Assembly (NCBI GenBank): GCA_016840165.1
Contig: JAEOSU010000092.1
Span: 1-29,335 of the forward strand
Length of the DNA stretch: 29,335 nt
DNA from: Promethearchaeota archaeon
GTDB lineage: Archaea; Asgardarchaeota; Lokiarchaeia; Sigyniarchaeales; SOKP01
Direction: 5' to 3'
The translations under genes were made by a program, and so were the position numbers. Shown here piece by piece: positions 4,104 through 14,520 of the stretch. The notes below the pieces were generated by a model, which was not told the DNA's origin, did no database searches, and saw only the letters and a list, made by a program, of their open reading frames with translations. The stretch's first letter is position 1. Each line of letters begins with the position of its first letter.

Positions 4104-5828
4104 TTATTGAGCCTTCTTTTCCTTGTCTCGAAGAGCTCTTTTTAATACTTTCCCAACGGCAGTGAGGGGCATTTCTTCTGTGAATTCCAATATTTTGGGA
4201 TTTTCATATTTTGAAAGATGTTCTGAAGCATATTTTTTCAAGTTTTCCTTGACCGAGTCTGTTGGTTGGATACCTTCTTTTAGTTGAACAATTGCTTTTA
4301 CTATTTCACTACCGGGACGATCAGCATCCGGTAATCCAATAATCGCAACTAATTCAATATCGGGATGTTTAGTTAAAACATCTTCAACATGAACACTATA
4401 TACCTTGTATCCACTTACTATAAGCATGTCCTTTGTTCTATCAACGATCCTCAGAAATCCATCCTCATCCATAATACCAACATCTCCCGTATGGAACCAA
4501 CCATCTATAATAGTCTGTTTATTAGCTTCGGGCTTATTATAATACCCTTTCGTGACTTGAGGCCCTCTACATATAATTTCACCCGGTTTTCCTAAAGGAA
4601 CTTGTTCCCCAGTATCGACATCAACAAGTCGTATATCAGTATCTGGCATAGGTATACCCACAGTTCCAATTTTTTTGGTTCCTCTATAAGGATTCATTGT
4701 CAAGATAGGAGAGGTCTCAGTCATGCCATAAACTTCTAGCACTTTATTTTCTGCATTTAAAGATTTCTCAAAGTCGCGTATTGCCTCAGCTGGAAAGGGG
4801 GCAGCTCCAGAAATATAAATTTCTATAGCATCTAAGGTTGATTGTGGTATTGATTTTGCTTTGGGATTATTTTTAATATTAAGATATAATGTTGGTACAT
4901 TAACTAACAAGCGAGGTACTTTTTCCTGCATCTCTTTAATAATATGTCCAGAATCTCGTGGATTTGCGATGAGGATTTGACCTGCACTAGCATATAACGT
5001 TACCATACTCATCGCAAGTCCCGCTAAATGAAATAATGGGAATGCAGATAAATTTACTTCGCCTTCTTTTGCTTCATATGTATCAATCCAAGTAAGAATT
5101 TGTATCGCATTGGAAATGATATTTTTATGTGTGAGTTCTGTTCCTTTCGGTAATCCTGTTGTACCTCCAGTATATTGAAGTAATGCTAAATCTTTTTCAA
5201 CATCAATATCAACATTCTTTAGATCAACCTCAGTATTCATTACTTCGAGAAAATCTATGACTTTTTTCCCTTCAAAGGGTGTCACCTTACCTTTTGGTAT
5301 CTTTTTCAGTAATTTTCCTAGAGTTACCTTTATTTTTGACAGCCCCATGAAATCTGAAATATTTGTTGTGATTACACATTCCAATTTAGGGACTTTATCC
5401 AATATTTTTAGTAAAACCTTTTCATAAATTGCATCTAAGGTAATGAAAAATTTGGCTTCACTGTCATTTAACTGATAGGCGAGTTCTGTAGGGCTTAAAA
5501 GAGGAGAACATCCAGAGGCAACACCTCCTGCCAATATAGTACCAAAATGAGCTACTAAGTACTGAGGACAATTTGCTAAATTAATTCCAACACGATCTCC
5601 TTTTTTTAATCCACTTTTTTGAAGAAATGTTGCGAAGCGATGAACTTTATCACGGAGTTCTTTAAATGTCATCTCGTTTTCCATGAAATAACTAGCAATT
5701 CTATCTGGAAATTTGCTCATTGCTTTATCAAAAAGAACTCCAAGAGATTCCGTCGGATATTCTAAATTCGGTTTTACATGGGAATCATAGGATTTAATCC
5801 ATATTTTTTTATCATAAGGCGATGAAAT
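4104..5828 (-). CDS. fadD: Long-chain-fatty-acid--CoA ligase (AMP-forming). Start probably ATT at 5828 (574 aa) rather than ATG at 5720.
   Basis: Motifs YTGGTTGLPKG, YGMTE, GWFHTGD, IVDRTKD and VGK. The frame stays open upstream of 5720 and encodes the typical FadD N-terminus (SSPYDKKIWIKSYDSHVKPNLEYP), with SD AGGTGG 6 nt before an ATT codon. Confidence 0.9.
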   Translation of the reverse strand: MSSPYDKKIWIKSYDSHVKPNLEYPTESLGVLFDKAMSKFPDRIASYFMENEMTFKELRDKVHRFATFLQKSGLKKGDRVGINLANCPQYLVAHFGTILAGGVASGCSPLLSPTELAYQLNDSEAKFFITLDAIYEKVLLKILDKVPKLECVITTNISDFMGLSKIKVTLGKLLKKIPKGKVTPFEGKKVIDFLEVMNTEVDLKNVDIDVEKDLALLQYTGGTTGLPKGTELTHKNIISNAIQILTWIDTYEAKEGEVNLSAFPLFHLAGLAMSMVTLYASAGQILIANPRDSGHIIKEMQEKVPRLLVNVPTLYLNIKNNPKAKSIPQSTLDAIEIYISGAAPFPAEAIRDFEKSLNAENKVLEVYGMTETSPILTMNPYRGTKKIGTVGIPMPDTDIRLVDVDTGEQVPLGKPGEIICRGPQVTKGYYNKPEANKQTIIDGWFHTGDVGIMDEDGFLRIVDRTKDMLIVSGYKVYSVHVEDVLTKHPDIELVAIIGLPDADRPGSEIVKAIVQLKEGIQPTDSVKENLKKYASEHLSKYENPKILEFTEEMPLTAVGKVLKRALRDKEKKAQ

Positions 5829-5862
5829 TTTTAACCACCTAATTTTAGTGCGTGTAGATTGA

Positions 5863-5881
5863 ATTTACAAAATTTGTAAAT
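5863..5881. promoter_or_regulatory. Perfect palindrome ATTTACAAA-A-TTTGTAAAT, a candidate operator at the predicted fadD transcription start
   Basis: 9-bp arms with a 1-nt spacer, about 23 nt downstream (minus strand) of an AAAG-TTTTATAAA BRE/TATA element at ~5904-5920. Confidence 0.4.
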
Positions 5882-12229: not shown

Positions 12230-13192
12230 TTATAAAAGACAAAGTGAAAACTTCTGTGTATCAGAGAGTTCTTTTAAGTGGATATCCGAATCATCTTGAA
12301 TAAATTGAGCGAGCGGGATACCTTTTTCGTAGAGTTCATTAAATTTATCGTAGAAGATTTGAAAGATATTTTTATTCCGAGATATATAAGATCCAATTAA
12401 TCGATTGGTAGGATCGAAACTCGGTTGTATTAATTCATTATCAGTAAGATTAAAGTTGCTGAAATCGTCATAAGTCACATGAACACTTATTGATTTAAAT
12501 TTTAAATCATATTGAAAAAGATGTTCGGTTAAAGTATCAAAGTCATGGCTTAATAATAACTCTTTTATTAGCTCAGCATTGAAAATAATCTGCATATTGA
12601 GATTTTTTAAATTATTAGAGATTTTAATCATACCTGTTCTCATAGAATTCTTAATTTCGACTGGTATATCCTTAGTTCCAAATTTCTTTATAGTTTCTAC
12701 TAATTCATTATCATAGCGTATACCTATTGCAATTTTACAAACTTCTTTACTTAGAAATGAATGATAGGTTTCATCTAAACTCTGTAAATTATATTTAATG
12801 AACTCGACAAATTCTTGGGTTATAGGTTCACCTAGATTAAAAATTTGAATAAACTCATCAACTGCCTCTTCTGCTTTTTCCTTTTCCTCTTGGAAAAGCA
12901 TTGTAAGCTCCTCGATCCGTCTATTAACGATTTTTTGCCATAATGGGATTATCGGAGTCGCTAAATGAATTTTCATTGGTCGATCATAGATTTGTACTAG
13001 TTCTAATTCATTTAAAACCGCACAGATCTTATATCCACGCTTTAATGTAAGATTATATTGGGCTGCAACTTCATTCAGGTTATCAATTCGTTTATTTTTA
13101 AGAAGATGATGATAAATTTTTTCAATACCCTTTTCTATTATCCCTATTGCATCGAATAAAGAACTAAGCGCCAAGAATTCTCTGTTTTCCAT
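12230..13192 (-). CDS. TrmB-family transcriptional regulator (N-terminal wHTH, coiled coil, C-terminal effector-binding domain)
   Basis: Pattern 'IGI..KIYHHLL....NEVA....LT....Y.....L.EL.LV...RP' followed by a coiled coil. The C-terminal 'NIFQIFYDKFNELYEKG' helix is typical of TrmB effector domains. Confidence 0.7.
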   Translation of the reverse strand: MENREFLALSSLFDAIGIIEKGIEKIYHHLLKNKRIDNLNEVAAQYNLTLKRGYKICAVLNELELVQIYDRPMKIHLATPIIPLWQKIVNRRIEELTMLFQEEKEKAEEAVDEFIQIFNLGEPITQEFVEFIKYNLQSLDETYHSFLSKEVCKIAIGIRYDNELVETIKKFGTKDIPVEIKNSMRTGMIKISNNLKNLNMQIIFNAELIKELLLSHDFDTLTEHLFQYDLKFKSISVHVTYDDFSNFNLTDNELIQPSFDPTNRLIGSYISRNKNIFQIFYDKFNELYEKGIPLAQFIQDDSDIHLKELSDTQKFSLCLL

Positions 13193-13200
13193 ATGATCAC

Positions 13201-13728
13201 CTACAATTCTGTTTTCTCTAAGGTTAATTCTGTGAGTACTTCGAACGTTTTAGTGACATTCTGACCTGTTTTGCTTGAAATCTCTCCAAATGAGGCCATT
13301 TTATGCTTTTCAGCTATTTGGATACCAAATTCTCTCGTAATTTCACGTTGTTCATCAGCCAGATCTATTTTAGATCCAACAAGCATAATTGGGATATCAC
13401 CTCCCTTTTTACGGACAATATTGACCCACTCGCTAATATTGTCAAGGGTTTGTGGTCTTGTAATATCATAGAGCAAAAAGGCAGCATTCGCACCTAAACA
13501 ATAGGTTGGTAAAAGAAATCTAAAGCGTTCCTCTCCTCCAACATCCCATATTTGTAGTTTAATTTTCTTTTTTTGTAATTCAACTAGTTTAACGTGAAAA
13601 TCGACTCCGATCGTTAACCGTTCGGAGGGATTAAAGATATTATAACAATATCGCTTAGTAAAGGACGTTTTACCAACCGAGGCATCTCCGAGCAGGAGTA
13701 CCTTAAACGTATAATCATATGCCGAAAT
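13201..13728 (-). CDS. Rab-like small GTPase, 175 aa (the ORF track shows only the C-terminal 91 aa). Putative ATT start.
   Basis: Manual translation upstream of 13476: (M)SAYDYTFKVLLLGDASVGKTSFTKRYCYNIFNPSERLTIGVDFHVKLVELQKKKIKLQIWDVGGEERFRFLLPTYCLGANAAFLLYDIT...SKID...SSK. G1-G5 and RabF-like motifs are present. An in-frame TAA lies at 13744-13746. Confidence 0.9.
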   Translation of the reverse strand: MSAYDYTFKVLLLGDASVGKTSFTKRYCYNIFNPSERLTIGVDFHVKLVELQKKKIKLQIWDVGGEERFRFLLPTYCLGANAAFLLYDITRPQTLDNISEWVNIVRKKGGDIPIMLVGSKIDLADEQREITREFGIQIAEKHKMASFGEISSKTGQNVTKTFEVLTELTLEKTEL

Positions 13729-13953
13729 TCCTATACCACCTTTTTATTTTGGTTAAACCTCAATTTTTAGGATCGAATTTTCTTAGTTTACTTAATAGAT
13801 ACCTAATCCTTCCTATTTCCAATAATCAAATAAATCCTAATCGATAAAATTAATATAATATTATAATCAAAAATGTCGTTTTTAATTCTTTACATTTTTT
13901 AGAATTAGCGAGAAAAAAAATAATTTCTATTGATAAAGGGCAAAAATAATATT

Positions 13954-14520
13954 TTATTGGGAGTGAAGGATTTGCTTTAAATTATCATAAATAACGGGAT
14001 TCAACTCTTTATCTAGATGTTCTCGAAGTTCTGAATCAATAATTGAATTATTTTTATGTTGACTTAAAAATCGAATTACACTCCACCGTACTGAGTCATC
14101 GGGATCTTCAATCAAGGGCAGTAAAAATTTAATGTATTTTGTATCGTTATTATCCGTTATTTTCATTACTGCTTTTGCACGAATGATAAAATCGGGATTA
14201 TATAATTCAGGTAATAGGTGATATTCAACCAAACCGTCCTCGGTAAAATTCAATATAAATTGAAATAATTCCTTTTTAAACTCATGTGCTTTATCTAATT
14301 CTTTGATGAGTTTTTTAATGGTTAATTGGGGGATCTTGTTACCAAGTTTTAGAAGACTTTCAAAGGAAATGAAGAAATTGTCTGATATATCATATTTCAA
14401 ATAATTTAATAGCTTTCTTATAATTTTGTCGTTCACTTTCGAGACTTCTATGACGTCCCAGTTGTCATGTTCTTTGATAGGTTTATTATCCCCCAAATAA
14501 TTCACGTTGTAGTTATCCAT
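13954..14520 (-). CDS. HEAT-repeat protein
   Basis: Repeats LYNPDFIIRAKAV, LIEDPDDSVRWSVI and LDKELNPVI. Confidence 0.8.
   Translation of the reverse strand: MDNYNVNYLGDNKPIKEHDNWDVIEVSKVNDKIIRKLLNYLKYDISDNFFISFESLLKLGNKIPQLTIKKLIKELDKAHEFKKELFQFILNFTEDGLVEYHLLPELYNPDFIIRAKAVMKITDNNDTKYIKFLLPLIEDPDDSVRWSVIRFLSQHKNNSIIDSELREHLDKELNPVIYDNLKQILHSQ

Follow-up and report, generated by a model that had tools for sequence, protein, structure and literature searches.

A Rab-like GTPase gene of a Lokiarchaeial genome is probably translated from an AUU codon behind a Shine-Dalgarno sequence, a kind of start that recurs across the genome

Archaea are described to start translation at AUG, GUG and UUG codons (reviewed in PMC7531240 and PMC4705826). 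In bacteria, infC, the gene of IF3, and a few other genes start at AUU, according to one of these reviews (PMC4705826, citing Butler et al. 1987), and in eukaryotes initiation at near-cognate codons takes place under the control of eIF1 and eIF5 (PMC4705826). In the literature outside subscription journals, we have found no systematic report of ATT, AUU or other non-canonical starts in Asgard archaea or Lokiarchaeota, and one anecdote. [quoted passage not shown]

The gene for a small GTPase investigated in this study shares distinct features with each of these systems. As in the case of infC, the apparent AUU start is located behind a Shine-Dalgarno (SD) sequence, the weak codon is kept by selection and the genes starting in this way include that of a fidelity factor. 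However, the organism is an archaeon, the factor is aIF1, a homologue of eIF1, instead of IF3, AUU or AUA serves dozens of ordinary genes where bacteria have one or two, and feedback would be a candidate property. The resemblance to the Asgard tubulin concerns a eukaryote-like protein that, as deposited, is missing its first beta strand, which a start at ATT would supply, and a ribosome-binding site at a plausible distance. Whereas the tubulin gene belongs to another Asgard lineage and comes without comparative or genome-wide support, the ATT of the GTPase gene is backed by 59 orthologs, a selection analysis and a genome screen. Finally, near-cognate initiation in eukaryotes involves the same codons AUU, AUA, CUG and ACG and a homologous fidelity factor, but it relies on scanning from the cap and on Kozak context, whereas in the Lokiarchaeial genome it is a strict SD at a distance of 6–8 nt that positions the start. 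Taken singly, the GTPase gene has a near-cognate start of a known kind, while the lineage-wide, SD-dependent use of AUU and AUA in archaea, including that in aIF1, is a novel variation of it.

The window, the whole stretch of 29,335 nucleotides that was analysed, is one contig of a 3.6-Mb assembly of a Promethearchaeota archaeon, which consists of 105 contigs, has a G+C content of about 33% and contains 54 matches to small GTPases. On its minus strand, a full-length gene of the Ras/Rab type extends over positions 13201–13728, as defined by its translation, its match to the Pfam family Ras, its relatives in the PDB and its orthologs, and it comprises 175 codons followed by a TAG stop (13203–13201). 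In the direction of the minus strand, an in-frame TAA (13746–13744) closing the frame upstream is followed by the codons AAA GGT GGT ATA GGA, the inferred start codon ATT (13728–13726) and the codons TCG GCA TAT GAT TAT. The TAA is thus located six codons before ATT with five codons in between, and the translation from ATT begins with (I/M)SAYDYTFKVLLLGDASVGKT. Ahead of codon 85 there is no ATG, GTG or TTG in this frame. The first canonical start is a TTG (13476–13474) exactly 84 codons downstream of ATT, which is the head of a 91-residue open reading frame in the list of such frames, and the sole earlier CTG is codon 12 (13695–13693), located within the first beta strand. Re-reading of the sequence has in this respect borne out the original prediction, which had extended the 91-residue frame by 84 codons containing the motifs G1 to G3 up to the TAA at 13744–13746, had found no ATG, GTG or TTG between this stop and the TTG, and had placed the only CTG inside the first beta strand.

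The encoded protein matches the Pfam profile PF00071 (Ras) with 149 bits at a cut-off of 21.6 (E = 1e-43), with its residues 9–167 corresponding to positions 1–158 of the 162 positions of the profile. Its motifs G1 (GDASVGKT), G2 (the Thr in ERLTIGVDF) and G3 (DVGG) are all encoded upstream of the TTG at 13476. In a search of the PDB, the solved structures that match it best are those of Rab10, Rab8A and Rab6 (5lpn, 6zsi and 2e9s; E = 4e-38), with a Ras fold over the full length, and the best 60 matches all are Rab, Ypt or Sec4 proteins, the relation to Rab proteins being judged by these matches. Residues 3–173 align with residues 7–176 of Rab10, and since this alignment opens at residue 3 of the ATT-started protein, nothing is missing at its N-terminus. 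The motifs IGVDF and KLQIWD are read directly from the sequence, and we take both to resemble motifs of the Rab family. Despite the Ras fold over the whole length and the Rab-resembling motifs shared with the eukaryotic proteins Rab10, Rab8A and Rab6, the GTPase differs from them by a Glu replacing the catalytic Gln after DxxG (DVGGEE), by a G4 motif SKID (in GSKID) where Ser takes the place of the Asn of the canonical NKxD, and by a C-terminus (...TELTLEKTEL) that offers no Cys for prenylation or geranylgeranylation. The description as 'Rab-like' consequently stands with respect to the best structural matches and not with respect to the catalytic Gln and the prenylation cysteines at the C-terminus. 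The replacement of Gln by Glu after DxxG is common to 13 of about 43 small-GTPase paralogs in the genome, and this large subgroup may hydrolyse GTP in a different manner or need a partner.

The 16S rRNA of the genome ends with ...GGATCACCTCCT, and the sequence AGGTGGT at positions 13741–13735 on the minus strand is complementary to this 3′ end, with which it is able to pair over 7 bp including one G-U pair. Throughout the genome, confident ATG starts are preceded by a GGTG(AT) signal at −11 to −6, with an optimal distance of 7 nt between GGTG and start and a usual range of 6–8 nt. The initial description of the SD and start region has proven correct, and the distance between the GGTG core and ATT was measured as 8 nt, one above the genome optimum. 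This distance is also relevant for a start at another near-cognate codon, chiefly the ATA at 13734–13732, which would lead to a protein that is two residues longer. ATA is found at the homologous start codon in six orthologs and it is enriched genome-wide. However, the ATA at 13734 follows GGTG after only 2 nt, outside the range of 6–8 nt, the residues upstream of ATT are not conserved, and in the nearest ortholog (L013/L042, 93% identical), which reads TAA GGA ATT, the ATA is missing and the stop is placed directly before GGA ATT, leaving only ATT. We thus regard a start at ATA as very unlikely, in line with the rank below AUU that it had been assigned from the beginning. Other orthologs read TAA AAA ATT, TAA ATA ATT or TAA ATT, with the stop located 0–1 codons before ATT in several species, and since the stop is found right before ATT, nothing but this codon is available as a start.

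For a comparison of start codons, a first set of 22 orthologs from the same genus was followed by 61 related loci with one genome per species, 59 of which have a readable start codon. The codon homologous to ATT is ATG in 27 of these 59 species, ATT in 23, ATA in six, GTG in two and ATC in one, with one of the ATT copies starting one codon upstream. In a maximum-likelihood tree of the 22 same-genus orthologs, calculated with the start codon left out and rooted at its midpoint, ATT is present in both of the deepest clades, ATG occurs in three clades apart from one another, and ATA and GTG are additional states, with a direction of change that is inferred from the midpoint root. The variation is tied to the upstream sequence: GGTG is located at a distance of 6–8 nt in all 32 non-ATG orthologs versus 3 of the 27 ATG orthologs (the species being related, a Fisher p overstates the association), and it is placed at exactly 7 nt in 21 of the 23 copies with ATT. 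A start codon behaves in this way, unlike an ordinary Ile codon or a gene in decay, and the gene seems to have switched its initiation mode during evolution. The ATG orthologs mostly contain no GGTG at all, and their sequence 15–30 nt upstream of the start is AT-rich and TATA-like, which may mean that their leaders are short or absent.

We consider it highly probable that the gene encodes a functional GTPase of 175 residues whose translation would start at the near-cognate AUU at 13728–13726 under the guidance of the SD. The presence of ATG, GTG, ATA or ATC at this very codon in orthologs with the same SD geometry supports initiation at AUU, as had been proposed. In keeping with a near-cognate start, no canonical start precedes the indispensable part of the protein, 29 of the 59 orthologs carry ATG or GTG at the same place, the ribosome-binding site is at a working distance, and the sequence upstream of the first canonical start is under purifying selection.

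The source of the window is a metagenome-assembled genome with an estimated contamination of 6.3%, a property that would favour an error in sequencing or assembly concealing a true ATG. Assemblies from two other studies nevertheless agree at the start codon. A 2.6-kb contig from a soil metagenome is 95–99% alike along the whole stretch with 16 differences, and a 594-nt contig from sediment, obtained in a third study, is 99% alike over positions 13287–13880 with two differences, none of which in either contig is located at 13726–13746. The independent contigs X5 and X9, which are identical at the start codon, show ATT where ATG had been considered as a possible outcome of such a comparison, and in light of the ATT found at the same codon in 22 other species, the probability of an error is negligible. 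Sequences from another run (X3) match only in short pieces at 90–95% and are uninformative on the locus. A single contig from an RNA library (270 nt) covers only positions 13175–13444, ends short of the start, carries no information on strand or 5′ end and could originate from DNA carry-over.

The absence of a canonical start ahead of codon 85 and the 91-residue product that gene callers give for orthologs would also be compatible with a pseudogene that has lost its start, or with a gene that now makes just the 91-residue C-terminal fragment from the TTG at 13476. Against both stands the conservation of the N-terminal 84 codons, higher than in the rest of the gene, with a dN/dS of 0.023 for codons 2–84 among ATT and ATA copies (at saturated synonymous sites) compared to 0.068 in the C-terminal half. 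Equally, there are no stops or frameshifts in the gene in any of the 29 species carrying ATT or ATA. The 91-residue fragment would be devoid of the P-loop, switch I and switch II, and its TTG is not preceded by an SD. A fragment of a Ras-fold GTPase that lacks these three elements cannot bind nucleotide. With ATT present in 23 species and no sign of decay in these copies, it is not the case that orthologs uniformly carry ATG while this copy has lost its start, and both the pseudogene and the fragment appear highly improbable.

A comparison of ortholog upstream sequences side by side has revealed a TATA-like block TTGAGG(T/A)ATAAA, of which TTGAGGTTTAACC at positions 13751–13763 of the minus strand is the copy in the window. 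In orthologs of the SD type (L042–L099), this block, which also contains an SD-like GAGG, is located 13–20 nt upstream of the SD, and its centre precedes the start codon by about 27 nt. If it were a promoter, it would put the start of the transcript near ATT and leave the SD untranscribed. The AUU could in this case be used via a leaderless transcript starting at or near this codon, for which the conserved position of the block would speak, or it could be reached by re-initiation after a short upstream TTG...TAG frame. A frame of this kind, with 10 codons and a TTG start, runs in this genome from the upstream block to a TAG that ends 2 nt before ATT (stop at −5 to −3). However, its length and frame are both not conserved among orthologs, the perfect linkage of a GGTG at fixed spacing to non-ATG starts is not explained by a leaderless transcript, and AUG is the codon preferred in leaderless initiation (PMC7531240). 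We thus view these routes to AUU as unlikely and favour its use under the guidance of the SD. A genome-wide profile of upstream regions showed no sharp TATA signal. A stronger TATA-like sequence, AATTATATATATAAATAGG, located about 105–120 nt upstream, is common to several orthologs.

The GTPase gene is part of a conserved three-gene neighbourhood on the minus strand (12230–14520), which contains, in the order of transcription, genes for a HEAT-repeat protein, the GTPase and a protein of 320 residues. The first (13954–14520; Pfam HEAT_2, E = 6e-8) is located upstream of the GTPase gene in 42 orthologous loci. The last (12230–13192) starts 8 nt after the stop of the GTPase gene, which is overlapped by its SD AGGTGATC, and it directly follows the GTPase gene in 58 of about 60 orthologous loci. 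The overlap of SD and stop suggests that translation of the two genes might be coupled and that their products might be functional partners. The 320-residue protein belongs to no known family, with no Pfam family scoring above cut-off; its match to RAI1 remained below threshold and was not accepted.

The use of near-cognate codons extends beyond the GTPase. In a screen of the whole assembly, we have searched for GGTG followed after 6–8 nt by a codon at the head of a frame of 120 codons or more, with an in-frame stop at most 12 codons upstream and no canonical start within 10 codons downstream. The screen returned ATG 49 times, TTG 19, GTG 6, ATT 18, ATA 9, CTG 3, and ACG and ATC once each. Per occurrence, this amounts to 18 of 1345 for ATT and 9 of 1043 for ATA, compared to 14 of 25335 for 51 control sense codons together, which corresponds to an enrichment over these controls with an odds ratio of 24.5 for ATT (p = 1e-15) and 15.7 for ATA. 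Raw matches of control codons such as AAA and AAT nearly all have an ATG one or two codons further, unlike those of ATT and ATA. A second approach that does not depend on the SD concerns 346 N-terminal extensions, each with a length of 15 codons or more, which contain no canonical start and do not overlap with another gene. In 101 of these, the in-frame hexamer score exceeds 0.2 and the extension looks coding, compared to 7.4% of short intergenic frames serving as null. A codon with a properly spaced SD is ATT in 33 and ATA in 10 of the 101 coding-like extensions, versus 5 and 3 in 95 low-scoring ones. This suggests that approximately 75–100 genes, or 2–3% of long open reading frames, need such starts in this genome.

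A Pfam domain opens upstream of the first canonical start in the genes of a fadD-like ligase, RpoE′, aIF1, HisB, NAPRTase and a GFO/IDH/MocA oxidoreductase, and 3 of 47 small-GTPase paralogs have no canonical start before the P-loop. The fadD-like AMP-binding ligase is encoded in the window itself (4104–5867, minus strand), where an in-frame TAA (5867–5865) and a GGTG (5839–5836) precede the ATT at 5828–5826, with the GGTG at a distance of exactly 7 nt. The first ATG (5720) comes 36 codons later, and the Pfam AMP-binding domain opens four residues upstream of it. The gene of HisB that appears to start at ACG (contig C102, 138–749, minus strand) was not counted, as it is located on a contig of 2.2 kb and a second HisB has an ATG. 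Its ACG coincides exactly with the TTG or ATG of orthologs and is preceded by GAGGTGA at 7 nt. The second copy (contig C50, 7754–8353) is 78% identical and starts at ATG, and the ACG-started copy may come from another strain or be in decay.

The coupling of SD and non-ATG starts found in GTPase orthologs recurs in the unrelated RpoE′ (Rpo7; contig C27, 53369–53968, minus strand), a subunit essential to RNA polymerase, whose gene reads TAA ATT ATT TTT AAA with an ATT start. Among 29 orthologs read across the family, this codon is ATT in 11, ATC in one, ATG in 15 and TTG and GTG in one each. A GGTG at exactly 7 nt is found in all ATT and ATC copies and, in total, in 12 of 14 non-ATG versus 2 of 15 ATG genes. 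The orthologs with ATG, TTG or GTG mostly belong to other genera and mostly do not contain this GGTG.

The gene of aIF1/SUI1 (contig C49, 34396–34737, minus strand) reads TGA ATA AGG AGT ATT AAA GAC ... ATT TGT CCC and contains no ATG, GTG or TTG before the zinc knuckle. All 29 genomes sampled from the family share this ATT, which is ATC in two cases, together with the leader AAAGGTTGTGA, and in some of them a stop precedes it by one or two codons. A second family of the order carries TTG, GTG, ATA or ATG at the corresponding codon, and a third carries ATG. In Sulfolobus, aIF1 discriminates against AUU (PMC4705826). Since the factor rejects AUU elsewhere and its own gene starts at this codon, it parallels infC with respect to its start codon. 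[quoted passage not shown] When aIF1 from the ATT-using family was compared with that of two other families, the basic loop (DRRKWGR vs DKRKWGR) showed no obvious change that would explain a relaxed stringency.

In the mechanism that we propose, pairing of AGGUGGU with the 3′ end of 16S rRNA would bring the AUU into the P site with a spacing in the usual range of 6–8 nt, in agreement with the geometry of the site. The initiator Met-tRNA, with its anticodon CAU, would pair with the first two bases of the codon and tolerate the mismatch at the third, in the manner of other near-cognate starts, and the protein would consequently start with Met. Selection would keep the weak codon only in places where its weakness is offset by a perfect SD, with relatives devoid of GGTG carrying ATG instead, and the weak codon would either lower the output or make it sensitive to the level of aIF1. 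AUU would in this way serve as a normal mode of initiation for a few percent of the genes in this Promethearchaeota (Lokiarchaeial) genus. A search of the whole assembly with ARAGORN, with and without introns, revealed no tRNA with a CAU anticodon. The Rfam tRNA model detected only 20 tRNAs (20–22 with standard finders), none of them CAU, and patterns of the anticodon arm gave nothing tRNA-like. The tRNAs for the initiator, elongator Met and Ile2 are either unassembled or contain unusual introns, and the initiator, which was not located in the assembly, may be of an unusual kind.

The described starts have consequences for annotation. The eukaryotic signature proteins of Asgard archaea are catalogued from automatic gene calls that allow only ATG, GTG and TTG, and such calls reduce the Rab-like GTPase to a meaningless fragment of 91 residues. 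The expected truncation is found on record, where products of 91–92 residues starting with MLYDITRPQ... are deposited for orthologs. Roughly 75–100 genes per genome may be affected, including those of RNA polymerase subunit E′, aIF1 and metabolic enzymes, and a re-annotation that takes start codons into account is needed for gene counts and alignments in this lineage as well as for structure predictions and expression constructs. The routine use of AUU with a perfect SD at fixed spacing also constitutes a natural experiment on the trade-off between SD strength and codon-anticodon checking in a small subunit of the eukaryotic type, with the GTPase orthologs providing a clean series of interchanges between ATT, ATA, ATC, GTG and ATG coupled to the gain or loss of the SD. 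In the same way, the AUU start of aIF1 makes the long-discussed parallel between IF3 and eIF1 testable in archaea.

We also applied the screen for GGTG to a complete genome from a different family of the order, over its first 800 kb (G032:C1:1–800000), where it returned ATG 16 times, TTG 4, GTG 3 and ATA once. Within these 800 kb, none of 353 ATT codons was recovered as a start, compared to about six expected by scaling on the ATG count. ATT use looks concentrated in the family of the window, with most of it in its own genus. ATA starts are more widespread. [quoted passage not shown] AUU and AUA, and occasionally CUG, ACG and AUC, would in this scenario act as regular starts wherever a perfect GGUG is located 7 nt upstream, and the GTPase orthologs would record repeated swaps between an SD with a weak codon and AUG without an SD. 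In the genome of the other family, at least one ATA start is convincing, which is located on the plus strand (198102) behind GAGGTGAT and belongs to an FtsX-like permease.
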